64,000 nucleotides of DNA from a virus. The stretch lies in IMG/VR virus record IMGVR_UViG_3300045988_143923, one strand, 5' to 3'. Below are positions 1 through 64,000 of this stretch, in pieces. The notes below the pieces were generated by a model. It was given only the letters and a program-made list of their open reading frames with translations, was not told the origin of the DNA and did no database searches. The stretch's first letter is position 1, and each line of letters opens with the position of its first letter. The position numbers and the translations under genes were made by a program.

Positions 1-18
1 ATTGTTTGAGGTGAAATT

Positions 19-810
19 ATGATCGGCGCAATTATCGGTGATATTGTCGGCTCACGTTTCGAGTACGACAACATTAAAATCAAAGACTTTGAGTTGTTCA
101 CGGATGACTGCCACTTCACCGACGATACAGTTCTGACAGTTGCTGTCGCAGGTGCATTGTTAGACGGTGGCAGACCAAGTTATTCACAATTACAGAAGAG
201 CACAAGAGTGTGGTTGCGCGGTCTTGCAAAGAAGTACCCCACCGCAGACTATGGCACACGGTTTGAAGATTGGGTCAATAGCAAATCCGATGAGCCGACC
301 AACAGCTATGGGAATGGGGCTGCGAGTCGAATTTCTCCTGTCGGCTTTGTTACCGCAAGCCGTGAACAGACGATAACGCTCGCGGATACGATTACCGGCG
401 TAACGCATAATCATGTTCACGCGCTCATTGGTGCCAGCGCGGTGGCTGTGTCAACGTATTATGCGCGAATCAGGTGGCCAAAAGAGCAGATCAAGAAACA
501 CATCAACGAATATTTTTACCAAATGGACTTCACTCTGGATGAAATTCGGCCAACGTATTCGTATTCTCTGGCGTGCTGGGATACCGTCCCGCAGGCGCTC
601 GAAGCGTTTTTTGAATCGACCAGTTTTGAGGATGCTATCCGCAACGCGATTTCAATCGGTGGCGATAGCGATACGATTGCCGCAATTACCGGCGGTGTAG
701 CCGAAGCATACTATGGCGTGCCACAGGAATTAAGAGAAAAGGCCGAATCTTATCTGGATGAACGACTTCTTCGTGTTATCCATGCCTTTGAAAACCTATT
801 TGAACGATGA
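19..810 (+). CDS. ADP-ribosylglycohydrolase family protein (DraG/ARH-like)
   Basis: 263-aa ORF behind a GAGGTGA RBS. It has the N-terminal GAIIGDIVGSRFE and C-terminal GGDSDTIAAITGGVAEAYYG motifs typical of ADP-ribosylglycohydrolases. Confidence 0.85.
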   Translation: MIGAIIGDIVGSRFEYDNIKIKDFELFTDDCHFTDDTVLTVAVAGALLDGGRPSYSQLQKSTRVWLRGLAKKYPTADYGTRFEDWVNSKSDEPTNSYGNGAASRISPVGFVTASREQTITLADTITGVTHNHVHALIGASAVAVSTYYARIRWPKEQIKKHINEYFYQMDFTLDEIRPTYSYSLACWDTVPQALEAFFESTSFEDAIRNAISIGGDSDTIAAITGGVAEAYYGVPQELREKAESYLDERLLRVIHAFENLFER

Positions 811-822
811 GGTGTTTGTAGC

Positions 823-1200
823 GTGACGTTAGATGAAGCGATTGAACATTTTGAGCGTATATACTGGGCAAAAACAGATGAAGATGGTGTTGAGTTTCCG
901 CAGCTTTCGCGTTGGTTGACCGAACTGAAAGAACTGCGAAAATTATGCGACTCTAAGTTGATAGACAACCGCCCACTTACACCGCGCGAGTTGATGTCCT
1001 TAGACGGTGAAGTGGTTTGGGTTAAAACCCAAAACGACTACGTTGTAAGTCAGCGCATGGTGGTGGATTCGACCAATCAGGTATGTGGTTCATTGTTACC
1101 GGGAACTGTCTTGTCGTTTGTAGATGGAGCGAATCATAATTGTGCTTATTGGGACTTGTGGGCAGCTTATCGTCTCAAACAGGAGGATAAAGAAGCATGA
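823..1200 (+). CDS. hypothetical early protein
   Basis: 125-aa ORF (GTG start) tightly packed in the co-directional gene array. No motif recognised. Confidence 0.55.
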   Translation: MTLDEAIEHFERIYWAKTDEDGVEFPQLSRWLTELKELRKLCDSKLIDNRPLTPRELMSLDGEVVWVKTQNDYVVSQRMVVDSTNQVCGSLLPGTVLSFVDGANHNCAYWDLWAAYRLKQEDKEA

Positions 1201-1439
1201 AAATCATAAAGCACGGGTTTCGTAAACCGCCGAAACTAATGCGATACAGGTGGGAATGCGAGAGATGCGGGTGTTTGTTTGAATATACCTATGAAGACCT
1301 AACGGTTGAATGGCACTTCAAGTATGGCGGCGGACGTAAACAGGGAGAAGGGGTTCTTTACTGCCCGGATTGTGGCATGAGAATTCCTGTTACTGAGGTT
1401 TTTGGATTTGAGATAGAGGAGGATAAAAATGACGATTGA
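1197..1439 (+). CDS. small zinc-ribbon protein
   Basis: 80 aa with an ATGA start/stop overlap. Has CERC...CPDC cysteine pairs. Confidence 0.6.
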   Translation: MKIIKHGFRKPPKLMRYRWECERCGCLFEYTYEDLTVEWHFKYGGGRKQGEGVLYCPDCGMRIPVTEVFGFEIEEDKNDD

Positions 1440-1818
1440 TGCAGCTATTAGGTACGCGGATATGCTTGCGAATGATGCAAGCACGATCTGGGAAATCCCC
1501 ATGGTGGAAATCCAGAGGCTTCACACGCTATGTGCGGACACGTTGCGGACGGTAAACGCGATGAGAGCCGAACCTCAGTGCCCAAATGACGTTGCGACGG
1601 AAGCACCGGGCACATGGCAGCAGCGCATGAAGCGCGAGTACCGCGAGACGAAGGAACGCTACGAGAAGTTACACCGCATGGTGACGAAGTACGAGGCCGG
1701 AACACTTGACTTCACTCCCAACTGTTCTCTTGACCTGCTCCGCCAGCAGAAGCGCCACATGGGCGAATACCTGCACGATCTTGAAATCCGAGCTGAAGTT
1801 GAGGGGATTGAACTGTGA
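1429..1818 (+). CDS. hypothetical helical protein (resembles small crAss001_48-type phage proteins)
   Basis: 129 aa, overlaps the upstream stop. The charged helical C-terminal half (KERYEKLHRMV...LLRQQKRHMGEYLHDL) supports this, but family assignment is from memory only. Confidence 0.5.
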   Translation: MTIDAAIRYADMLANDASTIWEIPMVEIQRLHTLCADTLRTVNAMRAEPQCPNDVATEAPGTWQQRMKREYRETKERYEKLHRMVTKYEAGTLDFTPNCSLDLLRQQKRHMGEYLHDLEIRAEVEGIEL

Positions 1819-2012
1819 AAGTAATCACTCACGGGAAATTCGGCGCACGAAGACATAGATGTGTCGGGTGTGAATGTGTATTTGAGTACACGACGGACGA
1901 TATCCATCACGCGGGCACAGACGACTACGAGGGCACAGACGACGGCCGGAGATTATTCGTTCTGTGCCCCGAGTGCGGCAGACCAGTAGCAGCTGTGTGG
2001 AGGAAGAGATGA
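1815..2012 (+). CDS. small zinc-ribbon protein
   Basis: 65 aa with CVGC...CPEC and a start/stop overlap. Confidence 0.55.
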   Translation: MKVITHGKFGARRHRCVGCECVFEYTTDDIHHAGTDDYEGTDDGRRLFVLCPECGRPVAAVWRKR

Positions 2013-2152
2013 ACATGTGGGACGATAACGACTACTGTTACGAATGCACCGGATACGGTGATGACTGGTACGAGGATGAGAACGGCGAACTTCAATCTCG
2101 CTGCGGTGACTGCCCGTTTAATCCGTCATACGATCCCGAGGAAGATTGGTAA
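2009..2152 (+). CDS. small acidic Cys-rich protein
   Basis: ATG at 2009 overlaps the upstream TGA (ATGA). Has CYEC...CGDC. Confidence 0.45.
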   Translation: MNMWDDNDYCYECTGYGDDWYEDENGELQSRCGDCPFNPSYDPEEDW

Positions 2153-2424
2153 TGTACGACAGCTTCATCGACATTTGGGAGGGAAGCCCTATGTGGGGAC
2201 AACACATCGAAGACTGGAAAACATCAGAAGAACAGAACGACGATTCATCCAACCGCTGGATTGTCGAGCTGGCGGATAACGGCTGGATGGATCACATCTG
2301 TCCTCGATGCCATTACAAGCGCAATCTGGACAACCATGTAATCAACACATATAGATATTGCCCGTACTGCGGCACACGACTCTATGGAGGAGGAAACGAC
2401 GATGGGTCTCGACGTTACGATTAA
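2146..2424 (+). CDS. small zinc-ribbon protein
   Basis: 92 aa with CPRC...CPYC. Confidence 0.55.
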   Translation: MVMYDSFIDIWEGSPMWGQHIEDWKTSEEQNDDSSNRWIVELADNGWMDHICPRCHYKRNLDNHVINTYRYCPYCGTRLYGGGNDDGSRRYD

Positions 2425-7810: not shown

Positions 7811-7841
7811 AAAAAAAGCTGACGTCAATCGTCAGCTTTTA
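7811..7841. terminator. bidirectional rho-independent terminator
   Basis: AGCTGACG/CGTCAGCT hairpin flanked by an A-run and a T-run, lying between convergent genes. Confidence 0.6.
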
Positions 7842-8166
7842 AGGTTTGAGCGAGTTTCTTTTTCTCGCGGCATTTTTTAATTCGCATCGCGTTCACAGTC
7901 GTGCCCCAGTCTTTGCGCGGGCCCTTCCTATAAGGAATGTAAGAGGAGACTGCGCTTGTAGATATTTTCAAAAGCTCAGCTATGTCCTTAGTCGGCATGC
8001 CTGCTACATATAGCTGTTGAATACGTTTTGCCCGTTCGGAAGTATACAGACCGGCTGTAATCAGTGTTCTCCTGACCGTTTGCTCGGAGATATTCAAAAC
8101 CGCGGCGACCCCTTTTATGCTCTGCGAGAGTCTATACTACTCCAGAATGTCATTGTACTGGCTCAT
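7825..8166 (-). CDS. double helix-turn-helix regulator containing an in-frame TAG (codon 10)
   Basis: ATG at 8166 sits behind an AAAAGAGGTGAGGAT RBS. The reading is MSQYNDILE-TAG-YRLSQSIKGVAAVLNISEQTVRR..., and the first HTH spans the TAG-proximal region. The ORF track only reports 7825..8097. Confidence 0.55.
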
Positions 8167-11568: not shown

Positions 11569-11970
11569 TTGAACAAGATTGTAATTATTGGCCGCCTGAC
11601 CCGCGACCCGGAACTCAAGTCCACCAACGCAGGTACTGCCGTATGTAACTTTTCTGTTGCTGTAGACCGTACTTACCGTGACAAGGAAGGCAATCGCCCG
11701 ACCGACTTTTTCGACATTTCCGTTTTCGGCGCGACTGCTGAGTTCGTATCCAAGTATTTTAAGAAGGGCAGCTCTATCGCTGTTTCCGGCGCTATGGAGT
11801 CCCGCAAGTTTGTTGATAAGGACGGCAACAACCGCATCGCTTGGTCGCTCCATGCCGACGAAGTAAATTTCTGCGGCAGCAAGTCCGAGAACAACGGCGG
11901 CGGCCAGAAGCCGAGTATTGACGAGGGCTACTCCGGCGATCCGGTTGAGTCCGACGACGCACTGTTTTAA
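11569..11970 (+). CDS. ssb: single-stranded DNA-binding protein
   Basis: N-terminus MNKIVIIGRLTRDPELK..., an OB fold and an acidic tail ending DDALF. Confidence 0.9.
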   Translation: MNKIVIIGRLTRDPELKSTNAGTAVCNFSVAVDRTYRDKEGNRPTDFFDISVFGATAEFVSKYFKKGSSIAVSGAMESRKFVDKDGNNRIAWSLHADEVNFCGSKSENNGGGQKPSIDEGYSGDPVESDDALF

Positions 11971-12837
11971 GTGAGCGAATACACAGAGAAGCTCCAGAAT
12001 AGAGTCTGGAGCTGGTCTTCTGCGACGCAAGCGCACGAATGCCCCTACGGCTTCTATCTTCAGCGGCTCGCTGAGCCAAGGATTAAACAGGACGAGAACG
12101 TATTCGCCCAGTATGGCAGCCAGATGCACGAATGGCTCGAACTGGTATTCAAAGGCATCATGCAACCGGAGGAGCTTCTGGAACTGTATCTCACCGATTA
12201 CGATTCCAAGATCACGCTCAAGTGGCCGTTTAACCGCTATGTAGACCTTGAGAAATCCTACTATGAGGATGGTCTCGCGTTCGCCCGTCATTTTAAGGGA
12301 CTCTCACCGAACTATGAAGTCATCGGTGTAGAGCTTGAGATGAAGGCGGAAATCGAGGGTTACAAGGTCATCGGTTATATCGACCTGCTGGTCAAGAACA
12401 AAAAGACCGGCGAGTACATTGTCGTAGACCATAAGAGTAAGAAGAAGTTCGCCAGCAAAGCAGAGGAGAAGAAGTACCGCAAGCAGCTTGAGTTTTACGG
12501 CTACCTCGTCCATGAGAAGATGGGCATCTGGCCGGCTTATACAGACCTCGACCTGTTTCGAGGGCAGAAGCATTACATCGAGCCTTGCACAGCAGAGGAC
12601 TGCATCGCGGCTAAGGATTACTTTATCGAGTCTGTAAAGACCGCCTGCGAGACCGAGGAGTGGTTGGACAAGCATTCCATCAAGGCGCGGGAGAACTTCA
12701 AGTCTGCCAAGGACGCGAAAAAGGCCGGAAAGGCTGACTTCTTCTGTGCTGAAATCTGCTCCGTGCGTTCTCATTGCCCGATGTCATCCGCTTATGTGAA
12801 GCCGAAGAAAGAGAAAAAGAGTAAGAAAGCAGGTTAA
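11971..12837 (+). CDS. PD-(D/E)XK exonuclease, Cas4/RecB-like with Cys cluster
   Basis: IGYIDLLV...VVDHKSKK nuclease motif, N-terminal HECPYG and C-terminal FFCAEICSVRSHCP cysteines. Confidence 0.75.
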   Translation: MSEYTEKLQNRVWSWSSATQAHECPYGFYLQRLAEPRIKQDENVFAQYGSQMHEWLELVFKGIMQPEELLELYLTDYDSKITLKWPFNRYVDLEKSYYEDGLAFARHFKGLSPNYEVIGVELEMKAEIEGYKVIGYIDLLVKNKKTGEYIVVDHKSKKKFASKAEEKKYRKQLEFYGYLVHEKMGIWPAYTDLDLFRGQKHYIEPCTAEDCIAAKDYFIESVKTACETEEWLDKHSIKARENFKSAKDAKKAGKADFFCAEICSVRSHCPMSSAYVKPKKEKKSKKAG

Positions 12838-12839
12838 AT

Positions 12840-14171
12840 TTGAACGTAAACGACATTAAAAGCGTAGAGGGAGAGGCTGGAGTTATTGCAACATTGATCC
12901 AGCATCCAACTTACTATTTTTACGTTGAAGAGTTAAAGCCGGAGCATTTCACCGATCCGCAGAACCAGATAATTTATCTGGCGTTGAGTGAGCTTGCTAA
13001 AAGGGGTATAGAGAAGATTGATGCTCTGAATGTCTTGAAGGTATTGGGAACAAAAAAAGCGACAAAACAGGCGGCTCAAAATCTCACTGTCGCATCAATC
13101 AACGAGATGATTGATCTCAGTCTGGTTGTTGCTCGCAATACGCCCGAGGAATATAAGTTGTTTGCCGATGATGTTCTGAACAAGGCTTTTCGACGTGGCG
13201 TCTATCAAAAATTGCAGAAATGTGAGCAGCTCTGCTTGACGGACGATGGAGGGGATCTCGGACAAAAGATTTATGCCGAGATTGACGAAACCGTTCTGAA
13301 CTACAATCCTCGAAACGATTTGCCTCTTTTCGGAGATATTGTCGATAAAATCTGGAAGGGTATTAAGGCGCGGCAGCGCGGCGATGCAAATATTATTGAG
13401 TTCCCGTTCCCAGAATTAAATCAGTATGTAGTCATAGAACCTAACGAAGTTGTTTGTTTTGCTGCCGTGCAAAAAGCAGGAAAGAGCGCCATGCTACTGA
13501 CATGCACCGTGGACATGCTCAAAAAAGGGAAGAGTGTTTTATATGTCGATTCGGAAATTTCCGATGAACAGTTCACCAAGCGTATTCTCTCTCATTTAAC
13601 TGGTATTGAATACAAAGTTATACGAGATGGTTTGTATACGGAAGAGCAGGAAAAACTTATCGACGAACAAAGAGCGTGGCTCAAAACGCAGAAATTTATC
13701 CATGTTTACACTCCTGTGCTCGATGAAAACACTCTTTTACTCGCGGCAAAACGCGCAAAACACCTTATTGATGTCGATTGCTGCGTGCTGGATTACCTGA
13801 AGCCCGCCGGTGGCACGGAAGCCTTCACGGTCTACGCTGAGCTCGGGAATATCGCCGATTGTTTTAAGAATCGTGTTTGCGGCGATCTGGGAATCTGCGG
13901 ACTGACGGCCGCACAGGCTACGAAGTACGGCCAAATTGCGGATTCTGCTCGCATTGGACGTTCTGTCAGTACGGTTGTTACTATCACCAACAAAACGAAA
14001 GATGAAATCCGTAACGATGGTGAGATGTGCGGCAATAAAAAAATGCGCGTCGCTTATAACCGAAACGGGGCTCAAATGAACGACGATGAATACATTGATG
14101 TCGATTTCAAGGGTGATATTCTGACTTATTGTCCAGCGAGAAAACAGCACGACCCATACGCACCATATTAA
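12840..14171 (+). CDS. dnaB: replicative DNA helicase (DnaB family)
   Basis: DnaB-like N-terminal domain and a Walker A motif (AAVQKAGKSAMLL). Confidence 0.85.
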   Translation: MNVNDIKSVEGEAGVIATLIQHPTYYFYVEELKPEHFTDPQNQIIYLALSELAKRGIEKIDALNVLKVLGTKKATKQAAQNLTVASINEMIDLSLVVARNTPEEYKLFADDVLNKAFRRGVYQKLQKCEQLCLTDDGGDLGQKIYAEIDETVLNYNPRNDLPLFGDIVDKIWKGIKARQRGDANIIEFPFPELNQYVVIEPNEVVCFAAVQKAGKSAMLLTCTVDMLKKGKSVLYVDSEISDEQFTKRILSHLTGIEYKVIRDGLYTEEQEKLIDEQRAWLKTQKFIHVYTPVLDENTLLLAAKRAKHLIDVDCCVLDYLKPAGGTEAFTVYAELGNIADCFKNRVCGDLGICGLTAAQATKYGQIADSARIGRSVSTVVTITNKTKDEIRNDGEMCGNKKMRVAYNRNGAQMNDDEYIDVDFKGDILTYCPARKQHDPYAPY

Positions 14172-22575: not shown

Positions 22576-23658
22576 GAATGTAACATATAACATCTTGCGG
22601 GGGCGTATGTGGTAACACATACTGAAAAAATCGCCTAACTCGGTGAACCTGAAAAGGAATACCGAACTAAGTTCGTTGCTTAAAATTTTTATAGAAAGGA
22701 GGTTATAATATGCCAAATTATATCGAAAAACTGCCTGAAGATGCAGTTCAGGTAAAAAACGCTTTGTGTTGGGTAACCCCTGCTGGGAATCTTTATGGAC
22801 AAGAAACACGAACATTATATAACAAAAAATTAGATAAAAAAATTCCGCACAAACACTATGGAGAGTTCTTCCAGTATAACACCACCGTGAATCGGAGAAA
22901 TGGTTACGTTTATGCACCCATCAAATACATTAAATCAGATGGGACATACGAAATTCGACGTCGCAGGTTGCACATTGTGATTGCGGAAACATTGCTTCCG
23001 AACCCTAATAAATTTCCTATTGTTGGGCACAAAAACAACATCAAAGCAGATATTAGGCTGAGTAATCTGTATTGGACGACAATCTCTGAGAATACAAAAA
23101 AAGCGTTCGACGATGGATTGGCCGTAAATGCAAAAGGTTATGATGACTCTCAATCTATCCCTGTCATAATGTTCAACACTTATACCAACGAAGAGATAGG
23201 AAGGTATGGAAGTGCCAGTGAAGCAGTGCGAGAAACAGGAATCCCTAAAAATACAGTTTTGCGCCAATGCCGGTATAAGAAACCTGTTCGTAAACCATTC
23301 TACTTCCGATTCCAATCAGACCCGTCGGTTGAACCGCCTCAGATTGTTATCCAATACGACTATGAAACAGATCGTGAAATAGGAAGATATTTCAATGTAT
23401 AGGAGGCAGCACGTCAAACAGGCGTGTATTCGAAGGTAGTAGACTACGAATGTAAATTAGGACATAAACCTGTCCGCAAGCCTAAAAATGGCACATATTT
23501 TACGTTCTATCAATCATCAATCTAAAGGCTCTATAAAATTTTAAGCAACGATAAATGCGTGGAGGTCATCGAAATCCGATAAGGTAAAGTAGAGTAGCGC
23601 AAGCGAAAGAGCGAACTCGTATGAAAAATACGATGAAAATATGACCCAAATAAAAATG
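22576..23658 (+). mobile_element. group I intron in nrdD
   Basis: The NrdD reading frame resumes exactly at 23659 (AENLCYTA...). There is a P1 pairing CCCCU/GGGGG, the intron ends in G, and it carries an HNH ORF. Confidence 0.75.
22710..23525 (+). CDS. HNH homing endonuclease with duplicated DNA-binding repeat, interrupted by an in-frame TAG at 23400..23402
   Basis: VGHKNNIKADIRLSNLYW HNH motif. Repeat 1 reads EEIGRYGSASEAVRETGIPKN...KPVRKP. Repeat 2 reads REIGRYFNV-TAG-EAARQTGVYSK...KPVRKP and continues in frame to the TAA at 23523. Confidence 0.7.
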
Positions 23659-34011: not shown

Positions 34012-34950
34012 GTGAATGATATGTCTGAAAAATATACGGTTATACAACATGAAAAGCGTGTGTTCTGGGCGCATGATTGTCCTGTACTACTGCAGGCTCA
34101 TGCTTTAACAAAGAACAATGTAGACAACAGTATCTTGGTTCAATGCAAATTCGAAAATCTATCTGAACAGAACATAAAGGCGATGTTTGTTTCCGTCAAG
34201 TGTTTTGATGTTCTGAATAGAGAATTAACTGGAGTGGACAAATTTTCTTATCTGGATATTTCGATACAACCATATACGTTGTTTGGAGACAGGACAGCTA
34301 TACTACTGCCGGATAATGAAACCAGAAATATTCGCATCACTCCTGAGCAAATAGTGTTCTCTGACAACACAGTCTGGGAAAACAAATATAGGCAAGCATA
34401 TGAGTTAGCGAAATATGATCAACTACCAATTTCTTCTTTAGGAGAATTAGCAAGCCAGTATAGCCGAGATTTAAGTTACATCAGCCCCACACAGCAGCAT
34501 AACTATTTGCCTTGTCATGAAAATGGATTTGTTATTTGCGGATGTGGAAAAATTGTTATGAATTCGGTTGCGAATTGCCCCTGCTGCAAGGTTCCCTTGA
34601 AAGCATTGTTCGACTTGAATAATGTCAAAAATCTGGAAAAACATCTCTCTGAATACAATGCTGAACTAGAAGATAATTATAAAAAAATTGAGATTCAACG
34701 CGCCAAAGAGAAAGCCATACTATCTGAAAAGGCCCGACAAGAGGAACTTCAACATCTGCAGAGAAATCCTTTTATAAAACAAAATCCGAGTTCAGATCAT
34801 ACAAAAGTATATAATCTGAAGAAAAAAATCGAGTTAAGTATCTTTGAGAAGGTAGATAGTAAGATTGAAAAAAATAAAAATGCTGTTCTCATCGTTCTCT
34901 TCGTTTTGGTCATATTACTCGCAATCGTGTTACCTCTATATTTGGGGTAG
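34012..34950 (+). CDS. zinc-ribbon, coiled-coil, C-terminally membrane-anchored protein, cassette gene C
   Basis: Has CGCGK...CPCCK, a K/E-rich helix and a terminal TM segment (VLIVLFVLVILLAIVLPLYLG). It ends in TAG. Confidence 0.6.
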   Translation: MNDMSEKYTVIQHEKRVFWAHDCPVLLQAHALTKNNVDNSILVQCKFENLSEQNIKAMFVSVKCFDVLNRELTGVDKFSYLDISIQPYTLFGDRTAILLPDNETRNIRITPEQIVFSDNTVWENKYRQAYELAKYDQLPISSLGELASQYSRDLSYISPTQQHNYLPCHENGFVICGCGKIVMNSVANCPCCKVPLKALFDLNNVKNLEKHLSEYNAELEDNYKKIEIQRAKEKAILSEKARQEELQHLQRNPFIKQNPSSDHTKVYNLKKKIELSIFEKVDSKIEKNKNAVLIVLFVLVILLAIVLPLYLG

Positions 34951-41365: not shown

Positions 41366-44300
41366 TTATCCGAATGTAGCCGTGAGTCCATTGACCGTTG
41401 CGTGGCTAAAATCCCATGTTCCATATAATTGAACTAAGTCTTTGTTATTGATCTGTAAAAATGGATTTTCGGAAAGAGATGAAAATGCAACGGTATCTAC
41501 TGCGTCGAAAATTCGAAAAGTCTTATCTCCATTAGCTCGATAAATAACAAAATCTCCGTATGCTCCACCGTCTAACTGCAATTTAGCTCCGCCTTCAATA
41601 TTATAATAAGCACTACCATAGAATTTGCCAGCTTCAATAGTCGGAGCAGATATCTTCGTACCTGTTATGAAAGTGACCGATGGAGCTTTCGCTTCACCGT
41701 ATTGTCCATGAGCAAGTTTATAAACGTCATCCGCTGCATCTTCAGCAGCAGAGGAGGCATTATTTGCTGTCGTCTGTGCATTCTCGATCTTCTGGTCAAT
41801 CGCATCTGTTCCGGTAACCGCGCCCCAACTGATCTTACCGCTCTTAATAGTTACATTACCAGAGCTATCTACTTGAAACGCTCCGTTGCCAATATCAAGA
41901 CTAACGCCTGTGATAGTGCCACCATCTTGGCCACCTTTTAGCGTGCCGTCCAGAGTAGTAGCTTTCAAAGTGCCGCTAAAAGTACCTCCGGTCGCCTCAA
42001 TTTCGCCAGTAAACTTTCCACTTGTAGCAGTAACTTTGCCGGTAAACTCGCCGTCCTTGGCATAAACGGTGCCGTTGAAAATGCCGTCTTCGGCATAGAT
42101 ATTGCCCCGGAAATAAGCCTTGCCGTCATTGGCGTCGATGTAGAAGTTCGTACCTTTCGGAATCTTCAAGCCCTTCAGTGTGATATCGTCGTCGAACACA
42201 ATCTTTCCGTCCTCGTCGATAAACGAAGGGGTGACTGTCGTGCCGTTCGTTGTATACAGGTCTCCCTTGCCGGATGCAATGCCGTAGCGTGGGTCGATTA
42301 AAATCTTGCCGCCGCCGTCCTTCGCCAAAACAAAGGTAGAGTTATACAGCCAAGCGCCGGTAGCGTCAACCTTGAACTGCATTACACCGTCATCGTTCGG
42401 AGCCTCAATTACCAGACCGTTACCGATAAGCAGCTTGCCGCCGATGATGTCGGCATTTACGCCCCAGTGGTCGCCCAGTTCATCAGTTGCAAAGTGCCCG
42501 ATAGCAACCTTCGCGCTCTGAAATCCGTCGTCCGACATAGCAATCATGCCGTTAATAATGCGAATCTGGTACGGAGAGTCAGGCTCGCCAATATGCAGAC
42601 CAGCACCGTCGATGCGGACACTCTGATTCTTTGCGCCGATAATAGAATTGACCGCCGCGTCCAAAGAACTGTTCATGAACTCGGAAACCTTGGAAGCCTG
42701 ATTCGCCGTCTGATTGTAGGTATACTTCGCCGCGTCAAAACTGCGGCTCGAAGAATAGCTGTTCTCAATCATCTCTTTCAGGTTCGCCACGTTGTCGTGA
42801 CGCTTGAACCTGTTGGAGAAGGTGAGCGACAGCTTTTCCTGATCCTCAAAGTCGAGGTCGAATCCAATCAGAACAGGGGTGATAACCTCATCATTGTGCA
42901 GACGCAGGTAAACGCCTTTGCCGAGCTCCAGTCCCTTTCGGAACGGCTCGAACTCCTGTGCCCAGATGAAGTTGCCGGTTTCAACGCTAAACTCATAGGT
43001 CGGCGAAGCAACGTCGGCGAGCGTCTTGACCGCATGGTCGTAAAGCTCCATCTCGACGGAATACTTCTGATAGTCCGACACATTGGTTGTCATATAAAGG
43101 TCGGCCGTCGTGATATCAAACGACAGAGAAGTGCCCTCGTAGGTAATAACCTCTTTGTCGTTTACCTCGTGAATGTCATTCTTGAGGTTGGACAGCGTAC
43201 CGGTCAGCGTAATCAGACCGCTTGGTGCGTTTTTTTCACCGATTTTCATTTCGCCGCAGTATAAACTGAACACAAATTCGTCACCGGCCTTGTGTTCCAG
43301 AGTACCACGGATAATTGAAATGGACATTTTGTTCGCCGCTGTTACCACGGCAGTGCCACCAGCGATGGTGTACATCTTCTTCTTGATCTCGCCGAAGTCA
43401 ACCTGCGCGAGGGTTGAATCAGAAATAGCAATCGCGCCATTCGTCACCTTGGAGCTCTCACCGGTCACAGCGGTATCAACATCGGAAGCGACAAAGGTAT
43501 CATCCGAAAGCGGTTGCTCGATAAAGTAGTGCCGTAACAGTGCGTACTCGTCTGCGGTAAAGAAAGCCGTCAGCTTCAGCTCGTCATTCACGGCTTTGAT
43601 TTGCGCCGGATAGGAGTCGGGGTTGGAAGCGTCGAGCGTGGTCTTGATATCTGCTACCACAGCTTCTTGGTCGGCAACCTCTTTCTTTTTCTTCTCCATG
43701 TTGGCGTTGATCTCGTCGAGCTTTTTCTGCTGCGAAGCCTTACCGTCCGCGGTCGTTTCCAGAGCCAGAGCCTGAATGGTTACAGACTGCTGATTCGTCA
43801 GGTCGTCCAGTTCGGCTTTTCGGTCAACCAGTTTGGCTTGTTCGGAGAGCAGCCGCGCTGTTGCAGAAGCTCGCAGTCCGACCAATCCCTTGTAGTATTC
43901 CTGACGGTTCAGCACGCTTTTCTGCCACTCTGTCCATTTTTCGGCCAGGGCAGAAGGAATATCGCCGTTCTCAATGAAGTACGAGATGTCGTAAATCCAG
44001 TTCGTGCCGGTCGGGTTTACTTGTCGTATGTCAAGGTCGTCCGCACCGCTTGGTGTCATAGCAGTTACTAACTCATCAGTCAGTTCTGTGATATCAAGGT
44101 CGGTCACGAGGTTGTCGAACCCGAGGTAAATCGGCAGGGTAGACACATCATCGTCCGCATCATAGGCGTTGATCGTCTTATTATACACGTCGAATACAAC
44201 CACGCAGCGAAACGTATCCATTGCGTCATCATACAGAAAACTCAGCGCGTAGTCGTCATACTGGTCGAACGTGCGGTAACGTCCAATCAAAGACGGCGCA

Positions 44301-44761
44301 ACATATCCTGCCTTCCAACCGGGGGATACTTCCAGAATTCGCCCCAGAATAGTATCATCCGGCGTTGCGGGATTCCAGAAGTTAAATGTGCCCTCCTCGA
44401 GGAAGAACTGCTTGTTCTCCAGCTTCTTCTCCAGAGAGTAGCCGGTCACCGACTTAATCTCTTCGATACCGTCACCGGAGATTTCCGGCTTCATCAGCAG
44501 AAAGATGCCGTAGTGCTCGGTGCGAATCACCTTGTATCCGACTACTTTATCATAGAGCGGCGTCGGCACGCCGTCAGAATAGGCGGGCAGGTCAAAAGAG
44601 ATTTCGCTTGTCTCGGAAAAGTTAACTGTGATTTTCAGATTCGCCACGTTGGGAAGCGTGCCAATCGTGCGCTCGTCAGCCGTTTGGAGCAGCAGGGTAG
44701 GCGGCTCCGGCCGACCAAATTTGTCAAAGGCGATTTGCGTATAATCGAGATACATACACAC
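41366..44761 (-). CDS. tail-associated protein (Tal / prophage tail endopeptidase-like minor structural protein)
   Basis: 1131 aa, positioned after Dit, with an N-terminus typical of siphoviral Tal. Confidence 0.7.
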   Translation of the reverse strand: MCMYLDYTQIAFDKFGRPEPPTLLLQTADERTIGTLPNVANLKITVNFSETSEISFDLPAYSDGVPTPLYDKVVGYKVIRTEHYGIFLLMKPEISGDGIEEIKSVTGYSLEKKLENKQFFLEEGTFNFWNPATPDDTILGRILEVSPGWKAGYVAPSLIGRYRTFDQYDDYALSFLYDDAMDTFRCVVVFDVYNKTINAYDADDDVSTLPIYLGFDNLVTDLDITELTDELVTAMTPSGADDLDIRQVNPTGTNWIYDISYFIENGDIPSALAEKWTEWQKSVLNRQEYYKGLVGLRASATARLLSEQAKLVDRKAELDDLTNQQSVTIQALALETTADGKASQQKKLDEINANMEKKKKEVADQEAVVADIKTTLDASNPDSYPAQIKAVNDELKLTAFFTADEYALLRHYFIEQPLSDDTFVASDVDTAVTGESSKVTNGAIAISDSTLAQVDFGEIKKKMYTIAGGTAVVTAANKMSISIIRGTLEHKAGDEFVFSLYCGEMKIGEKNAPSGLITLTGTLSNLKNDIHEVNDKEVITYEGTSLSFDITTADLYMTTNVSDYQKYSVEMELYDHAVKTLADVASPTYEFSVETGNFIWAQEFEPFRKGLELGKGVYLRLHNDEVITPVLIGFDLDFEDQEKLSLTFSNRFKRHDNVANLKEMIENSYSSSRSFDAAKYTYNQTANQASKVSEFMNSSLDAAVNSIIGAKNQSVRIDGAGLHIGEPDSPYQIRIINGMIAMSDDGFQSAKVAIGHFATDELGDHWGVNADIIGGKLLIGNGLVIEAPNDDGVMQFKVDATGAWLYNSTFVLAKDGGGKILIDPRYGIASGKGDLYTTNGTTVTPSFIDEDGKIVFDDDITLKGLKIPKGTNFYIDANDGKAYFRGNIYAEDGIFNGTVYAKDGEFTGKVTATSGKFTGEIEATGGTFSGTLKATTLDGTLKGGQDGGTITGVSLDIGNGAFQVDSSGNVTIKSGKISWGAVTGTDAIDQKIENAQTTANNASSAAEDAADDVYKLAHGQYGEAKAPSVTFITGTKISAPTIEAGKFYGSAYYNIEGGAKLQLDGGAYGDFVIYRANGDKTFRIFDAVDTVAFSSLSENPFLQINNKDLVQLYGTWDFSHATVNGLTATFG

Positions 44762-54579: not shown

Positions 54580-54856
54580 CTGTTTGTTACTTTTTTCCTT
54601 AAAAACGAAAAGAACAGGTCATTTCTGCCTGTTTCTGCAATTTCATTATTCGATTATATTTGCAGACCCGACTATATCTTCACCTCCAAAAAAGGAGGGG
54701 ATGGCATGACTCTGCACGTTACCGTGCAAAATCGGTTAGTCTGTACGGATTCTTGTGGTCAAACACAAGTCTTTCCTCGGTATTGCCCATCTCTGGGTGT
54801 TCACCGATATAGCCATCTTTTACGCTGCACATCGCTGTGCAGGGAGGCCGGTCAAA
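54580..54856 (-). mobile_element. group I intron 1 in the tape measure gene (family B)
   Basis: P1 pairing GAGGU/GCCUC. Has the CCGUACAGACUAACCG and GAAGAUAUAGUCGGG elements. Terminal G. Confidence 0.7.
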
Positions 54857-56532
54857 ACCTCATTGAAACGGTCTACGACGCTTCCAACATCATCAGCAGC
54901 AAGATGGAAGCCCTGCAGAGTAGAAACAAGCGACTGTGCCGCGTCCTCAATGTTCGTGTATTCCGACACGTTCATATATTTGGTCGCCCAGTCGCCAAGA
55001 TTGGAGGCATCCTCCAAATTAAATCCGAGTCGGCTAAACTCAGATGTTGCTCCAATTACATCCGTAATCGAAGCGCCGAGGCTCTTCGCGCGTTCACCAG
55101 CGCTGTCAAGATAATTAGCGTAATCCTGACTTGAACCTTCCGAAACCTTTTTCAGGTCGGTCATCGCCGTGTCAACGTCGATAACATTCTGGAGCGTCTG
55201 CTGTAAGCCATTCTGCAATAAGTGCAGTCCTGCCATCGCAATAGCCGTGTTAAAGTGATCCTTGAACAGGCGAGTCAGCTTCTGCCCGACAGTTTCAGAC
55301 GTAAACCCGAGTTCTTCCATACTGGAGCGAACAGATGCGAGGTCTCTTTGAAGTCCCTCAACGCTATCACCTTCGCCCGGGTTTCTCGCACGGCTCATAA
55401 TGTTCCGCAGTTCGCCTTGAAAATAAGAACCCGCCGCTTTTGGGTTATTTTTAAGTGTTTCGCTGGCCTGCCGATAAATGTTCGCCAAATGTTCCTGCGA
55501 TCTCTGAGAACGAACGGTCGCAGTTTGCTTAGCATTAAACAAATCTGCCTGTGCGCTCGCATCAGCCCACGCGGAACGGAGTCCATTCAGGCCCTGCTCC
55601 AGCTCATAAGTACCGGCCGCCGCATTCTGGAAAACAGATTTTGCATTCTCGAATGCCGTCCAATCATAATTCTGCAGCGTCCCTTTATCTTTTAGAGCCT
55701 GAAGCTGCGTTATATATTTCTGGCCGGATGCCAAAACATTATCAGTAACCGACTGAGAGTTCTGTCTGGACACTGTAGTCCACATCTTCTTGATGTTTTT
55801 CTCAAGCGCGTACTTCTCTGGCGTAAAATCCGCCATGCTCTTGTACTGTTTGAGCATCTTATCAAGGCTGGCTACATTCTCCTCACCAAAAAGGTTACCC
55901 TTCTTGAGCTTTCCAAACTTAGAGCTAATCTGCTGAACATCCAACATAGATCGCTCGGCCTTTTCTGCAGCCTTCAAATTGTTGCGAGAGAACGCAATAT
56001 TGGTCGCCTGCTGTGCCTCTTTCAGAGCGTTAACGCTTTCTACAGTTCCCTTGGTCGTTGACTCAAACTTCTTCATCGCGGTTTCAGCCGCCGAGATAGC
56101 CTTTGAATCGATAGGACTCGGCATGTTCTTCAGATACGACATCGTCTGTCTCAAGCCGGTCGCCTGACGCTCCATTGTACGCAACTGCCGTTCCGCAGCC
56201 TTCTCTGCGTCTGTTTTGCCCGATGTGGAGCTTTTAGACGAGCTGCTCTTTGTGGTAGAGGAGCGGGTCGAAGCCGCAGAAGACTTAGCTTTGCCGGAGC
56301 TGTTTGTTCCAGTTCCGGCCGCCGAGATAGCCTTTTTAATCTGAGCAGTGATATTGGCAGTATCAACGTTTACTTTCAGCTTGGTTGAGGAAGCGTTTTT
56401 GATTGCTGAACTGATACTTTTCTGCAGAGCTGCAGCATCAACTTGAATTGGAAAATCCTTGTAGTTACTGAGGGCGCTTTCGAGTTTGTCAAAATTAGGG
56501 ATAAGTTCGACAGTAACGCCTAAATCAGCCAT
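54857..56532 (-). CDS. tail tape measure protein, exon 1
   Basis: Helical N-terminal part ending ..VVDRFNEV. The ORF track (54820..56532) runs on into the intron. Confidence 0.8.
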
Positions 56533-57217: not shown

Positions 57218-57424
57218 CTATTCATCATCGATAGGTTTGCGACGCTTTCCACCACACACAAGGCGTGCGGGCTTTGTAAATCCACGGCGAGCATGTCGTT
57301 TGCATTGCCCTTTGAAGCATCCGTAAATACGGATATTGGAAGTCCTGCGATGATTATCGCTCATATACCAACCGTGCATATTGCTGCTGGTTCGAATTCT
57401 TCCTCTAACAGTCTTCCGTTTCAT
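57218..57424 (-). CDS. very basic small protein (uncertain)
   Basis: ATG at 57424 behind a GGCGGAG RBS. R/K-rich. It ends in TAG. Confidence 0.3.
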   Translation of the reverse strand: MKRKTVRGRIRTSSNMHGWYMSDNHRRTSNIRIYGCFKGQCKRHARRGFTKPARLVCGGKRRKPIDDE

Positions 57425-59772: not shown

Positions 59773-60780
59773 TCACTTTTCGGCTTCTTCTGCCTCCGCA
59801 GCGCGTTTGTTTTCAAAGAACTTGCTCAGTCGCTCGCTGGCTGGCACATCGTTATAAACCTGTACCATCGCGCTGTTCGCCCAGCCGACCACATCGGTAA
59901 TATCGCTCTCAGACATACCGTCACGCACCAGATTGGACACAAAAAGGTGCCGCATAGAGTGCCAGTAGAACGGCTTAACCGTGAATCGGTCAATCGTCTG
60001 TGCCCAGCTGTTCAAAGTCTCGGCCGAAGCCTGCTCGTAACCCTTATCGGTTTTGGTCACGAACAGCCATTCGCTGTTAATGCTGAGGTCTTTACGCTGC
60101 TGTAACCAGCGTTTCAGGTACGGGTCAAATCCTGATTTTATAACGTAGCAGTCGATCATCTTCGCACCCTTGGTCAAAACCTTCTCGGGAGTGCAGTAAA
60201 AATAGTCAAAAACCACGTTTTCAGGCTTAAACCAGTCCACTTTGAATCGAGTCAGTTCAGCCTTTCGGCGACCGCTGTAGACTGCCAGAGCGAGAGCACA
60301 GGCAATCTGAAACTTGCCCGCCTCAGTCAGTTTCTGCAGAATAACCTCCATCTCCTCGGTGGAGAAGACGCTCTTCTCACGGACAGGCGTATTCTGTGGG
60401 TTCTCAATCTTGCGGATGATCGGACGGAAGTCCTCGTATTCATCGTCAAGGATGTTCTCGATGTAGTTCGAGAGAGAAGAAAGCGCCGCCTTTACACGGC
60501 GCACACGGGCAGGGGAGTTGCCGTTCTCGTTGATGAGCCAGTTCTGTAGAGAAACAATCTCTCGCTTTTTCAAATCAATGAACGACTTATTTCCGCAGTG
60601 CTGGAGCACATAAGTGAATACGATAAGCAGGTCGCTCTTGTATCCTTTAATCGTGCCTTCACTGCGTTTTAGAGAACGAAGATACTCCAGAAAATCATTC
60701 ATCAACTGAATGTTCTCCGGATTTATCTGCTTCGTCAGCTCCGGAGAGGTCAGCTTGTTCATCTGTGTCTGGCGTCCCAT
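59773..60780 (-). CDS. tyrosine recombinase (XerC/D-phage integrase family), second copy in the window
   Basis: ATG at 60780 behind a GGAAAGGAGGGTGAAG RBS. Has SAM-like N-terminal and WHSMRHLFVSNL...VGWANSAMVQVY motifs. Confidence 0.8.
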   Translation of the reverse strand: MGRQTQMNKLTSPELTKQINPENIQLMNDFLEYLRSLKRSEGTIKGYKSDLLIVFTYVLQHCGNKSFIDLKKREIVSLQNWLINENGNSPARVRRVKAALSSLSNYIENILDDEYEDFRPIIRKIENPQNTPVREKSVFSTEEMEVILQKLTEAGKFQIACALALAVYSGRRKAELTRFKVDWFKPENVVFDYFYCTPEKVLTKGAKMIDCYVIKSGFDPYLKRWLQQRKDLSINSEWLFVTKTDKGYEQASAETLNSWAQTIDRFTVKPFYWHSMRHLFVSNLVRDGMSESDITDVVGWANSAMVQVYNDVPASERLSKFFENKRAAEAEEAEK

Positions 60781-61360
60781 CTTCACCCTCCTTTCCGAAA
60801 AGGCCGTAGACGAGGTTGTCTGCTGTGGAATCATCCAGTGTGCCGGACAGCAGTGCCTTCGCAGTATCAACATCAATGCCGGTAATCACATTCTTCAGAC
60901 CACTCATCAGGTCAGTCGCCGCGTCTGCGATACGGTCAAACGGGTTAGACTGGGTCATTGCCTGCATCAGTACCAACTCGGTATCAATCGCGGCGTTAAT
61001 CTGCTTGTAACAAGCCTCTTCCAGCTCAGCCAGTTTATCCTCGCCGATAACCTCTGCAATCAGAGTATAGATATCGGTCTTGTACAGCAGAGCAGCTTCA
61101 AAGCCACCATCCAGTGAGATATGCAGGTCAGTGCAAATCTTCACGACAGCGGAGCGGAAAGCCCAGTCAACCAGACCAAAATTGCGGCCGTCACCGTCAT
61201 CAATATGCTGGCCGACCTCATTTACAATAGTCGCACGCATCTTCGGGGTAATCAGCGGCTTAATCTTGATTGGAATAATGGTCTCGCCGATAGTGAGATC
61301 CTTGGTTACAGACTCTACATACGGAGTCAGAGCCGCCATAATATCAGTCTTCTTGGACAT
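60695..61360 (-). CDS. hypothetical protein with acidic C-terminal tail
   Basis: 221-aa ORF. Its 3' end overlaps the recombinase start by 86 nt. Confidence 0.5.
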   Translation of the reverse strand: MSKKTDIMAALTPYVESVTKDLTIGETIIPIKIKPLITPKMRATIVNEVGQHIDDGDGRNFGLVDWAFRSAVVKICTDLHISLDGGFEAALLYKTDIYTLIAEVIGEDKLAELEEACYKQINAAIDTELVLMQAMTQSNPFDRIADAATDLMSGLKNVITGIDVDTAKALLSGTLDDSTADNLVYGLFGKEGEDGTPDTDEQADLSGADEADKSGEHSVDE

Positions 61361-61844
61361 TTTTCTTTTGTTCCTCCAAATTTTTAAGATACGCCAACGC
61401 GATGCAAAGCGCGTCAGCTTCGTCCGTTTCCACGGACAAGTTATAGGTTTCGCGAATCAGGTCGATAGCCTGTTGTTTCAGATTTTCGCGAGTGACGCGC
61501 CCTTGCTTAAAGCCGAGCACCTTGCGCCACTGGGTAGGCAGGTAAATCGTTACGGGAACCTGAAAAATGTGACAGTATCCCAGAATGACACCCTGCAGTC
61601 GGGCAAGAACAATAAGCGCCTGCGCCGACTTCATGTACATAACATCCTCGACAACCACTTGGTCGGGCTTGTATTTTGTGATGACATCACGGATAGCAAG
61701 ACACATCTCCGTAAAGCGTATACTGCCGTCTTTCTGGCTGTGCAAGTCGATCATTCCGTGACGGACATATTTACCGTCATCAAAAACAGCCCAGCCGGTT
61801 ATCAAGGTTGATTGGTCAAAACTTAATACGCGCATTGGATTCAC
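61344..61844 (-). CDS. ruvC: RuvC-like Holliday junction resolvase
   Basis: MRVLSFDQST...VVVEDV...ETDEADALCIALAY acidic catalytic pattern. Confidence 0.75.
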   Translation of the reverse strand: MNPMRVLSFDQSTLITGWAVFDDGKYVRHGMIDLHSQKDGSIRFTEMCLAIRDVITKYKPDQVVVEDVMYMKSAQALIVLARLQGVILGYCHIFQVPVTIYLPTQWRKVLGFKQGRVTRENLKQQAIDLIRETYNLSVETDEADALCIALAYLKNLEEQKKNVQED

Positions 61845-62674: not shown

Positions 62675-62744
62675 TCGCGTTCGCCTCCATTCAAAAAATT
62701 TTCGTTTTATTTGCGAAATGTAAAGAAACCGAGGACAAAAACGG

Positions 62745-63026
62745 TCATTCCTCGGTTAATACACTCACATCCGCGTCATATACATCCTCAGCAGGACGCG
62801 AATCCTCATAGGTGATGGTCGGAGTCTCCGCGATAACGGGAGTTTCTACGACCGGTTCCTTCGCCGCAGCTTCAGCGGCTTTGCGTGCGCGAACAGTGTC
62901 TACCCAGATATTCCAGCATTCGGGCGAGCATGCTACAGCACGCCAGCTGCCGATCTGTTCACACTTCTCGCAATGGTGATACTTTTTACCGCAGACTTTG
63001 CAGACTGCGTTCAGATATTCAGCCAT
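62745..63026 (-). CDS. small zinc-ribbon protein
   Basis: CKVCGKKYHHCEKC...CSPEC motif. Confidence 0.5.
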   Translation of the reverse strand: MAEYLNAVCKVCGKKYHHCEKCEQIGSWRAVACSPECWNIWVDTVRARKAAEAAAKEPVVETPVIAETPTITYEDSRPAEDVYDADVSVLTEE

Positions 63027-63050
63027 AATAGTTTCCTTTCTTATTTAATG

Positions 63051-63126
63051 TGGCACGAGTGCTTCGAGTCGAACGAAGATCGGAGAATTTTGGAGATTCC
63101 CAGTTTCCCAATTAGCCTACACTCGC
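63051..63126 (-). tRNA. tRNA-Trp (anticodon CCA)
   Basis: Hand-folded 76-nt cloverleaf. Anticodon loop CUCCAAA, T arm CTTCG-TTCGACT-CGAAG, encoded CCA. There is one C-A mismatch in the D stem and a G1-U72 pair. Confidence 0.8.
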
Positions 63127-63129
63127 ATG

Positions 63130-63222
63130 TGGCAGAGATGGTTGGATTCGAACCAACGAGCGAGAGCGTTACCTCTCTTGGCGGAGTCAAATTCCGCTGC
63201 CTTACCGCTTGGCCACACCTCT
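63130..63222 (-). tRNA. tRNA-Gln (anticodon UUG) with an 18-nt hairpin inserted in the variable loop
   Basis: 93 nt. It has the Gln-type D arm GCCAAGCGGTAAGGC, anticodon stem-loop GCGGA-AUUUGAC-UCCGC, T arm GTTGG-TTCGAAT-CCAAC and G73-CCA. The variable region is CAAGAGAGGTAACGCTCTCGCTC. Confidence 0.7.
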
Positions 63223-63266
63223 GTATAAAAAGGGAGGCTCGAAAGCCTCCCGATGAATCAGATAAC

Positions 63267-64000
63267 TTAGGCTACCAGATAGATGTTCCAGAGGGTCTTG
63301 TCCTTGGCACATACGTCGGTCAGAGTCTTAGCGCTGAACGCATGAACAGCCGGCTCGTCACCGATATCCAGAGTGTAGTTGCCGTCGATCTTAGCCTTCG
63401 GAATCTCGAGGATTGCATGGTGCTTGATGTTCTCGTCGCACTTCTCAGCAACAGTGCAGTCAACCAGAATGCGTGCATTCTTAGAGAAGTTGTCTGCGAT
63501 GTTGGAAATCTTGCGGCCCTCGGTGATCTCGTGGTCATAAGCAACGTAGATCTCGGAACCCTTCTTCAGATCATCAGCTGCGAAGGTGATGGTCTTCTCT
63601 GCAGCATTAACAGTGAAGGACTTGCCCTTAACCGGAGTCTCAGCAACAACAGTGTACTCAGCACCCTGCGTGCCATCGCTTGCAACCAGCCAGATGCGCT
63701 TAACCTCAGCACCCTCAACGCCTACCGGAACGTAGGACAGCTTAGCGGTGGTGTCGGTGTCCAGCTCAACGCGCTCGAAGTTCGGAACCTGAATCTTGTT
63801 GTCCTCAGATGCCTCTTCAATGTCAGTACCAGCCTGAGCAGCCAGCAGACCAGCTACGAGGAATGCGTTGTTCCAAGTAATCGTTGCAGCCTTGTTACGG
63901 TCGAGGGAAGCGAGCAGCATGCCCATCTTACCGGTAACATCGCTGGAATCAACGGTGTTTTCCAGAGAACCATCCTTAATCTGGTCGCACAGTGCATACA
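63267..64000 (-). CDS. phage structural protein, 5'-partial (possibly major tail/tube protein)
   Basis: The ORF is open to the window edge and has highly expressed-type codon usage. The function is guessed from position only. Confidence 0.45.
   Translation of the reverse strand, partial: YALCDQIKDGSLENTVDSSDVTGKMGMLLASLDRNKAATITWNNAFLVAGLLAAQAGTDIEEASEDNKIQVPNFERVELDTDTTAKLSYVPVGVEGAEVKRIWLVASDGTQGAEYTVVAETPVKGKSFTVNAAEKTITFAADDLKKGSEIYVAYDHEITEGRKISNIADNFSKNARILVDCTVAEKCDENIKHHAILEIPKAKIDGNYTLDIGDEPAVHAFSAKTLTDVCAKDKTLWNIYLVA

Follow-up and report, generated by a model that had tools for sequence, protein, structure and literature searches.

Near-absence of TAG stops and a conserved tRNA(CUA) locus in a probable SPbeta-like phage lineage of the human gut

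Stop codons in the window and its relatives

We analysed 64,000 nucleotides of the virus record IMGVR_UViG_3300045988_143923 (IMG/VR), referred to here as the window, in which TAG had been noticed, from the letters alone, to be almost absent as a terminator. Early and replication genes, a lysis block, an AT-rich cassette and a late operon follow one another along it (Table 1). The window most likely represents about half of the ~125-kb genome of an SPbeta-like temperate phage whose hosts are human-gut Clostridia. Exact-protein look-ups placed its proteins on contigs of ~125-128 kb from human-gut metagenomes, which carry the SPbeta families YonB, YomW, YomV, YomU and YomN (Pfam). The SPbeta structural and late families, which also include YonJ_N and YonG (Pfam), a YonO-like gene and an HU-like gene, stand in a shared gene order. 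Relatives were recovered by an IMG/VR scan with the YonB-like protein and share 85-90% protein identity. The fetched loci (L numbers below) are non-independent samples and were stitched back into contigs before contig-level counts.

Genes were called with a simple caller of our own, which scores codons by log-odds, adds a term for the ribosome-binding site and tiles the calls greedily. Its output agrees with gene calls made independently on the metagenome contigs, and the gene structure is intact under genetic code 11. The 84 called genes, which fill 87% of the window, end in TAA (52), TGA (29) or TAG (3); in a stricter set of 58 genes the counts were 37, 20 and 1. The near-absence of TAG at gene ends was thus borne out, and all five TAG coordinates given in the earlier note (34948, 36421, 57218, 8137 and 23400) were correct. 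The depletion is specific to TAG, with TGA still ending 35% of the genes at a whole-window G+C content of 48%. The same two values do not support low G+C as the driver of the depletion.

The share of TAG among the stop triplets of the window was 12.1% off-frame within genes, 25.6% in antisense and 21.3% in intergenic DNA, and both TAG and CTA triplets were under-represented in every frame. Bacterial genomes average ~20% TAG stops regardless of G+C, and TAG is described as a universally suboptimal stop in bacteria (PMC3549826). In the tail modules of distant relatives, TAG makes up 7.7% of stops. The probability of three or fewer TAG ends among 84 was 1.3e-5 against the bacterial mean of ~20%, 0.006 against the off-frame share of 12.1%, and 0.10 against the 7.7% of the distant tail modules. 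The window taken alone is therefore only suggestive of TAG depletion, because the result changes from 1e-5 to 0.10 with the baseline. A whole-genome count was made on eight near-complete standard-code relatives, and ordinary TAG usage was not seen: TAG closes 26 of 1032 gene calls (2.5%), below every baseline tried (P = 3e-29 against 12.1% and P = 6e-13 against 7.7%). Nine of these 26 ends are internal TAGs. About 17 true terminators are left, several of which have TAA or TGA within 0-4 codons.

The three TAG terminators of the window were inspected one by one. The TAG at 34948 is kept in four relatives, and the frame beyond it stays free of stops for at least 100 codons here, against 10 codons in contig 134948. 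Since this downstream extension is not conserved, we read the codon as a true stop in an accessory cassette. The orthologue of the fibre paralogue in L038, whose C-terminus is 97.5% identical, stops at TGA. The small open reading frame (ORF) 57218-57457 was called as a gene in metagenome contigs and is absent from the variant L004. A TGA stands 3-6 codons downstream of two of the three terminators. An accessory cassette, an exchangeable fibre paralogue and an optional ORF are positions at which leftover TAG stops fit suppression.

Bulk reassignment of TAG, the pattern with which the depletion had been compared, was not supported in the window. Translation under code 15 in place of code 11 raised neither coding density nor score: coverage went from 0.8742 to 0.8735 and the summed coding score from 4839 to 4840. 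In the controls, reading TGA or TAA as sense cost 300-390 score units each. Only four ORFs were altered by code 15, namely the fibre paralogue, which gains a 6-codon tail, a frame overlapping the 3' end of the tape-measure gene, the helix-turn-helix gene with the TAG at 8137, and the endonuclease with the TAG at 23400. In-frame TAG is missing from 82 of the 84 genes, including structural genes of 2088 and 1129 aa. A third candidate (45640-45638, - strand), which would extend the gene 44771-45559 upstream ('METCRAFL*EVLN'), was judged spurious, because the added stretch runs in a different frame over the 3' end of the tape-measure gene, and that gene accounts for its conservation.

In-frame TAG codons and the tRNA(CUA) locus

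Both TAGs reported inside genes of the window proved to be real, and they differ in standing. The one at 23400 is kept in 11 of 11 loci that have the endonuclease ORF, and the one at 8137 is a private CAG-to-TAG single-nucleotide polymorphism. Over the 342 nt of the helix-turn-helix gene, six contigs are identical to the window except for C in place of T at 8137, and the TAG allele was found only in the window. Internal stops in conserved genes of all fetched standard-code loci amounted to two TAG (8137 and a TGG-to-TAG change), one TAA and one TGA; an excess of TAG among the in-frame stop polymorphisms of the standard-code population was not found.

The endonuclease is read under code 11 as a 230-aa HNH ORF, and its frame, together with a NUMOD1-like repeat, runs 40 codons past the TAG. 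The repeat 'EIGRYGSASEAVRETG...KPVRKP..YFRFQ' returns as 'EIGRYFNV*EAARQTG...KPVRKP..YFTFYQ', which spans the TAG. A Pfam NUMOD1 stretch (residues 213-239) also crosses it, at a marginal 23.2 bits against a cut-off of 22.8, and the coding score rises from 20.0 to 24.8 under code 15. All 11 copies read TAG, so that no variant points to an ancestral residue, and neither this TAG nor the two other conserved ones described below have a comparator for the residue. The endonuclease lies in a 1065-nt sequence that parts the two pieces of nrdD (20830-22590 and 23656-24147, + strand). No Rfam group I intron match was obtained in this intervening sequence even at E<=1; the interruption may be an intron of a divergent type, or nrdD may be genuinely split. 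An unrelated HNH endonuclease ORF in contig 124129 (61641-62117, L077), a close relative, has a TAG after the HNH motif ('EWCTNS*NVKHG') as its sole internal stop.

Code-15 calling in the near-complete standard-code relatives revealed two further genes with a conserved in-frame TAG, ~17 and 19.5 kb past base 64000 at the head of the late operon, so that with the window endonuclease the lineage has three such genes. Both were left uncalled by the metagenome gene callers; annotation under code 11 silently shortens or loses TAG-containing genes.

Gene 1 is a Cys-rich gene of 74 codons with TAG at codon 34 in 10 of 10 standard-code contigs. The TAG stands at the same place in two recoded contigs described below, despite a DNA identity of only ~77%. 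Past the TAG, the gene is conserved through synonymous changes, and its stop, TGA, shares bases with the start of the next gene (ATGA). This next gene encodes a 975-aa protein and is intron-split in some genomes. It is read as a YonO-type late RNA polymerase on the basis of a phrog_8308 match, tblastn matches in deposited phages annotated as RdRP-type polymerase, PF05183 in some homologues, and gene order. Downstream of it lie YonJ, the HU-like gene and YonG, in an order like that of SPbeta. The YonO-like gene forms a single 975-aa ORF in some contigs (L154, 6001-8928) and pieces of 623, 105 and 265 aa in IMG/VR contigs. Contig 121181 carries the split gene at 51870-55429, and in L027 an Rfam group I intron lies nearby (247-524).

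Gene 2 is RepA_N-like, has 126 codons and stands first in the late operon. Its start is an ATG with a strong Shine-Dalgarno sequence, and TAG occupies codon 11 in 9 of 9 contigs. There is no ATG, GTG or TTG in the 37 conserved coding codons after the TAG. Variable sites at codon positions 3, 1 and 2 are in the ratio 16:6:2, and upstream of the TAG three of the four variable codons are synonymous. The Pfam RepA_N and PHROG homology starts at residues 21-37, ahead of the first possible start under code 11.

A search with ARAGORN and Rfam found no tRNA with a CUA anticodon in the 64-kb window. The relatives, walked upstream, have one in a cluster of the form Gly(CCC)-Met or Ile-Lys(UUU)-CUA, adjoining a gene of 168 aa. 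It occupies one conserved locus, 14-19 kb upstream of window base 1, in all 33 distinct related contigs that cover this locus (ten from IMG/VR, including both recoded ones, and 23 from ENA or Logan). Three contigs that carry the tRNA match parts of the window at 97.6-100% identity (Table 1). From these relatives we infer that the genome of the window carries a tRNA(CUA) too.

The locus holds three tRNA sequences: form A of 94 nt, form B of 76 nt and form C of 90 nt, the last in the recoded clade. CUA is retained in each of them, and their scores with the Rfam tRNA model are 49-54 bits. Forms A and C have in common an A1.C72 mismatch and G73, and their acceptor stems are different but mutually compensated. 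The retention of the anticodon across three diverged sequences argues for selection on amber decoding. In form B (L097, 2824-2899; also L099, L102, L103, L111, L136 and L143), ARAGORN assigned a four-base anticodon, UCUA, and the anticodon stem has a mismatch; this form might have weakened suppressor activity or decode a quadruplet.

The 94-nt tRNA(CUA) resembles the tRNA-Gln(UUG) of the window in architecture and has a similar acceptor stem (AGAGG.G, G73). We considered that the latter, with its long arm, might be a mistranslating tRNA of the Ser or Leu type, and rejected this because relatives have an ordinary 75-nt tRNA-Gln at the same site. Its D-arm also appears to match that of Bacillus subtilis tRNA-Gln. 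The extra arm recurs in a 94-nt tRNA-Ile(UAU) that replaces tRNA-Met in some contigs, and in L091 the Rfam tRNA matches are 116-126 nt long.

Two relatives, contigs 3300045988_131771 and 3300045988_143321, form a sister lineage with 77-81% nucleotide identity to the window and 87-88% identity in the DNA polymerase. Here code 15 raised the coding density in every fetched region, with coverage going from 0.834 to 0.864 and from 0.807 to 0.833, respectively. We counted 43 in-frame TAGs in 30 genes of the first contig and 25 in 23 genes of the second; the genes concerned include orthologues of the SSB, nuclease, DnaB, ThyX, tail protein, tape-measure, integrase-like and RuvC genes of the window. 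In one sample of 30 TAG sites aligned with standard-code relatives, the counterpart was Q at 18, K at 8, N at 2, and R and E at one each. TAG is recoded genome-wide in the sister lineage, and its sites align for the most part to Gln. In the recoded relative L027, the orthologue of the tRNA-Trp of the window has its anticodon changed from CCA to CUA by a single C-to-U substitution, which gives this relative a second CUA tRNA. In Escherichia coli, the CCA-to-CUA change switches tRNA-Trp to charging with Gln (PMC2965240, citing Yaniv 1974). The tRNA-Trp(CCA) of the window was found by ARAGORN and not by Rfam, even at E<=1; the CUA allele of L027 scored 45.4 bits.

Probable amber suppression and competing explanations

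We consider it likely that the lineage consists of amber-suppressing phages with minimal use of TAG, which fits the intermediate proposed to precede recoding. On this explanation, the lineage would encode its own amber-suppressor tRNA(CUA) in the early tRNA cluster (Gly-Met/Ile-Lys-CUA), and TAG would be read through while the tRNA is expressed. Because of this read-through, selection would then strip TAG from nearly all gene ends. The TAG stops that remain would lie in genes that are accessory or exchangeable and would often be backed by TAA or TGA within a few codons, and in-frame TAG would be kept in few genes only (the endonuclease, the RepA_N-like gene and the 74-codon gene). The lineage would be a minimal or incipient user of code 15, and the sister lineage would have spread TAG into replication and structural genes. 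The alternative that had been set beside reassignment, low-level or conditional read-through with amber suppression, gained support from the relatives, with the tRNA(CUA) in 33 of 33 contigs, three genes with conserved TAG and a recoded sister; bulk reassignment in the window did not. For read-through itself the support is indirect and comes from the conserved cloverleaf of the tRNA, its retained CUA and the conserved in-frame TAGs with coding-type substitutions. The residue inserted is probably Gln, as suggested by the sister lineage alignments, by the CAG that the TAG at 8137 replaces, and by acceptor features of the tRNA that resemble those of a tRNA-Gln. The guess of TAG-to-Gln reassignment agrees with the alignments (Q at 18 of 30 sites), and for the window itself it is an extrapolation from them.

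Several observations weigh against suppression in the phage of the window. The window shows no gain under code 15, and the tRNA(CUA) lies outside it, its presence in the same genome being taken from relatives. Efficient read-through at 34948 would add an extension of ~114 codons. The TAG at 8137 is indistinguishable from a null allele, since the in-frame stop polymorphisms show no surplus of TAG over TAA or TGA, and may be an ordinary null mutation. The TAG at 23400 may reflect decay of a selfish gene, the NUMOD1 match being marginal. The anticodon loop of form B has 8 nt. Finally, many Firmicutes form Gln-tRNA indirectly, and the precedent of E. coli GlnRS may not transfer to them.

A bolder version of the suppression hypothesis concerns timing. 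The TAG-bearing genes may gate late development, because the two that lie outside the window sit at the head of the late operon. The ambiguity of the code would then be a developmental switch that works through just two or three codons, and in which the early tRNA(CUA) is needed for the RepA_N-like protein and, by ATGA coupling, for the YonO-like polymerase. Late transcription would start only after tRNA(CUA) has accumulated. The sparse state would be ancestral to the genome-wide TAG-to-Gln change of the sister lineage, which a one-base change of the tRNA-Trp to a further suppressor would have helped. We put this version forward tentatively and think it rather doubtful as a whole.

Ordinary stop bias, with TAG the least-favoured stop, both in-frame TAGs of the window due to decay in dispensable genes, and no suppression at all, is an unlikely alternative to amber suppression. 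It is consistent with the lack of gain under code 15, the private polymorphism at 8137, TAA and TGA nonsense polymorphisms as frequent as TAG, a TAG count in the window (3 of 84) that does not differ significantly from the 7.7% of distant relatives, the scarcity of TAG and CTA triplets in all frames and the universally suboptimal status of TAG in bacteria (PMC3549826). However, the 2.5% of the clade lies far under every baseline tried, all 33 relatives have a CUA tRNA fixed at a single locus, with three sequence forms among them, and two further genes have a conserved TAG with coding-type substitutions on both sides.

Phage stop usage often follows that of the host, and the cause could lie there: a TAG-poor host with weak RF1 or a suppressor of its own, mirrored by the phage. 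We judge this quite improbable, as the suppressor is phage-encoded, recoded phages of the gut reportedly infect hosts with the standard code (bioRxiv 10.1101/2021.08.26.457843), and TAG still makes up 21-26% of stop triplets in the intergenic and antisense DNA of the window.

It is also conceivable that a recoded ancestor reverted and that the tRNA(CUA) and the TAG-poor stops are now functionless leftovers. The recoded and the standard-code clades have the tRNA locus and the TAG of gene 1 in common, and since both share them, the ancestor would already have had both; the aberrant 8-nt anticodon loop of form B also suits a relic. Against this stand the CUA kept in three diverged tRNA sequences with compensatory stem changes, the RepA_N-like and 74-codon genes, which vary at third positions and are not decaying, and the contigs with form B, which still keep both TAG genes. 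A relic therefore seems very improbable.

Complete code-15 recoding of this phage, of the kind found in crAss-like or Lak phages, might be expected from relatives at 77-81% nucleotide identity that are recoded genome-wide, and is refuted by the sequence of the window itself, in which 82 of 84 genes, the 2088-aa and 1129-aa structural genes among them, are TAG-free, coverage and coding score are flat under code 15, and TAG still terminates genes with conserved C-termini; we give it almost no chance.

Amber suppression with minimal TAG use corresponds to a step in the model of Borges et al., in which stop depletion is followed by a suppressor tRNA and then by the spread of in-frame stops (bioRxiv 10.1101/2021.08.26.457843). 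Their Fig. 3A contains one standard-code Agate phage that has a suppressor tRNA for TGA and that they propose to be an intermediate before recoding, and they put forward the idea that recoding regulates lytic genes (bioRxiv 10.1101/2021.08.26.457843). Our lineage resembles the Agate phage in its standard-code gene structure, suppressor tRNA and close recoded relatives, within the same three-step model. It differs in that the codon concerned is TAG in place of TGA, the suppressor is fixed in the whole clade (33 contigs) and not limited to one genome, conserved in-frame TAGs are already present, one of them common to the recoded clade, and the depletion is not attributable to low G+C.

As in code-15 gut phages (crAss-like, Lak and Firmicutes-infecting clades, bioRxiv 10.1101/2021.08.26.457843; phAss-1, PMC10607447), the lineage has a phage-encoded tRNA(CUA) and TAG-poor gene ends, the in-frame TAGs of its sister align mainly with Gln, and the lifestyle is that of a prophage in a host that presumably keeps the standard code. 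Unlike them, the lineage of the window has only about three conserved in-frame TAGs, no gain under code 15 and a G+C content of 48%, and no release-factor or aminoacyl-tRNA-synthetase family was found among the Pfam-annotated genes returned. The tRNA-Trp of L027 has the same mid-anticodon C-to-U change as the E. coli amber suppressor Su7 (tRNA-Trp CCA to CUA; PMC2965240, citing Yaniv et al. 1974), and the Trp-to-Gln charging switch described there would match the TAG-to-Gln alignments of the sister lineage. In contrast to Su7, it is a natural phage allele, in a Clostridial host that may lack GlnRS, and the window keeps CCA.

With Bacillus phage SPbeta the lineage shares YonB, YomW, YomV, YomU, YomN, YonJ, YonG, the YonO-like polymerase and the HU-like gene, and both have genomes of ~125-135 kb, a temperate lifestyle and introns that hold homing endonucleases, whereas protein identity is mostly below 40% and the host belongs to another class. 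To our knowledge, no amber suppressor has been reported in SPbeta.

We regard the clade as the TAG counterpart of the Borges intermediate, with a second route of suppression visible through the resident tRNA-Trp, and not as evidence of a new principle. The step between the standard code and a recoded genome has so far mostly been inferred. The clade appears to occupy it in many natural genomes, with the suppressor fixed, TAG ends almost gone and about three in-frame TAGs, one of which is common to both lineages and another directly ahead of the late RNA polymerase gene. The idea that recoding times the lytic programme thereby becomes testable in a temperate phage.

Relatives, host and other features of the window

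Megablast with the window returned no near relative among deposited phages. The closest protein matches, in the unannotated faecal contig MT835469, were below 40% identity for the DNA polymerase and below 50% for the YonO-like protein. A relation to phAss-1 was ruled out, as the best deposited-phage matches of the DNA polymerase fall below 40% identity. A cluster-member look-up located one variant of a neighbouring gene on a 471-kb contig of Butyricicoccus sp. AM28-25. This link, through a single gene variant, suggests the host group, and the genome points to a possible lysogen for tests of recoding timing. A YonO-like homologue is present in Flintibacter muris. A host search with PhoH against genome representatives gave only matches of 31-33% identity, in metagenome-assembled genomes of Bacilli.

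Table 1. Features of the window, with matching contigs that carry the tRNA(CUA). Positions are those of the window.
Feature	Position	Strand	Remarks
Early and replication genes	1-27 kb	+	
Short lysis block, then AT-rich cassette	between early genes and late operon	- (lysis), + (cassette)	
Long late operon	rest of window	-	tail genes, tape-measure gene, PhoH, ClpP, RuvC, two tRNAs
Double helix-turn-helix gene	7825..8166	-	private amber codon; 113 aa in all related contigs
CAG(Gln) to TAG, codon 10 of helix-turn-helix gene	8137..8139	-	CTA on + strand
SSB, PD-(D/E)XK nuclease, DnaB helicase	11569..14171	+	TAG-free here; sister orthologues (L079, L082) have TAG at Gln/Asn positions
HNH_3 + NUMOD1 homing-endonuclease ORF	22710..23525	+	271 codons when read through TAG
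Conserved in-frame TAG	23400..23402	+	in second NUMOD1 repeat of homing endonuclease
TAG terminator of ORF 34012-34950	34948..34950	+	membrane protein, last gene of AT-rich cassette
TAG terminator of fibre paralogue 36421-37515	36421..36423	-	TGA 6 codons on
Tail protein gene	41366..44755	-	TAG-free here; 131771 orthologue has TAG at window R295, Q600
Tape-measure gene, first piece	54820..56532	-	131771 orthologue has TAG at window E217, Q313, Q417
TAG terminator of small ORF 57218-57457 (79 aa)	57218..57220	-	TGA 3 codons on
Integrase-like gene and RuvC	59773..61835	-	recoded orthologues have TAG at Q6, Q79 (integrase-like) and Q8, Q102 (RuvC)
tRNA-Trp(CCA)	63051..63126	-	ARAGORN
tRNA-Gln(UUG)	63130..63222	-	93 nt, 18-nt extra arm (variable-region hairpin)
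ERZ28656981 scaffold_198 (L147)	match to 1-6762		99.985%, collinear; tRNA(CUA) 14.0 kb upstream of base 1
ERZ28666026 scaffold_125	match to 1-12.4 kb		97.6%; tRNA(CUA) present
ERZ1744957 NODE_34	match to 47487-64000		100%; tRNA(CUA) 19.3 kb upstream

Several early genes on the + strand are counter-defence-like: an ADP-ribosylglycohydrolase (19-810), a Sequestin (1429-1818) and a PARG-like gene (4795-5592). Just upstream, within up to 10 kb, some relatives (L017, L144) have an NAD salvage cluster, made up of NAMPT, a ribose-phosphate pyrophosphokinase-like gene, NAD synthase and isochorismatase, together with a gene with a SocA/Panacea domain. DNA polymerase III alpha (15236-18529, + strand) is 1097 aa long in the window and 1238 or ~1365 aa in close relatives; the differences in length suggest an intein or other insertion that comes and goes. 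At the switch between the + and - strand blocks (25025-27468), an integrase and a NikA-like gene form a pair in a variable spot, where relatives have either an additional element bearing Mob_Pre and TnpV or else a large serine recombinase. The cassette at 32677-34950 (+ strand, G+C ~0.40) lies within late genes of the - strand, has no Pfam match and looks like a recent accessory acquisition. The tape-measure region contains two Rfam group I introns on the - strand, at 54258-54566 (69 bits) and 51921-52284 (61 bits), and the tape-measure frame is in pieces (54820-56532, a middle part, and 45603-51869). Self-splicing introns thus seem to interrupt the gene.

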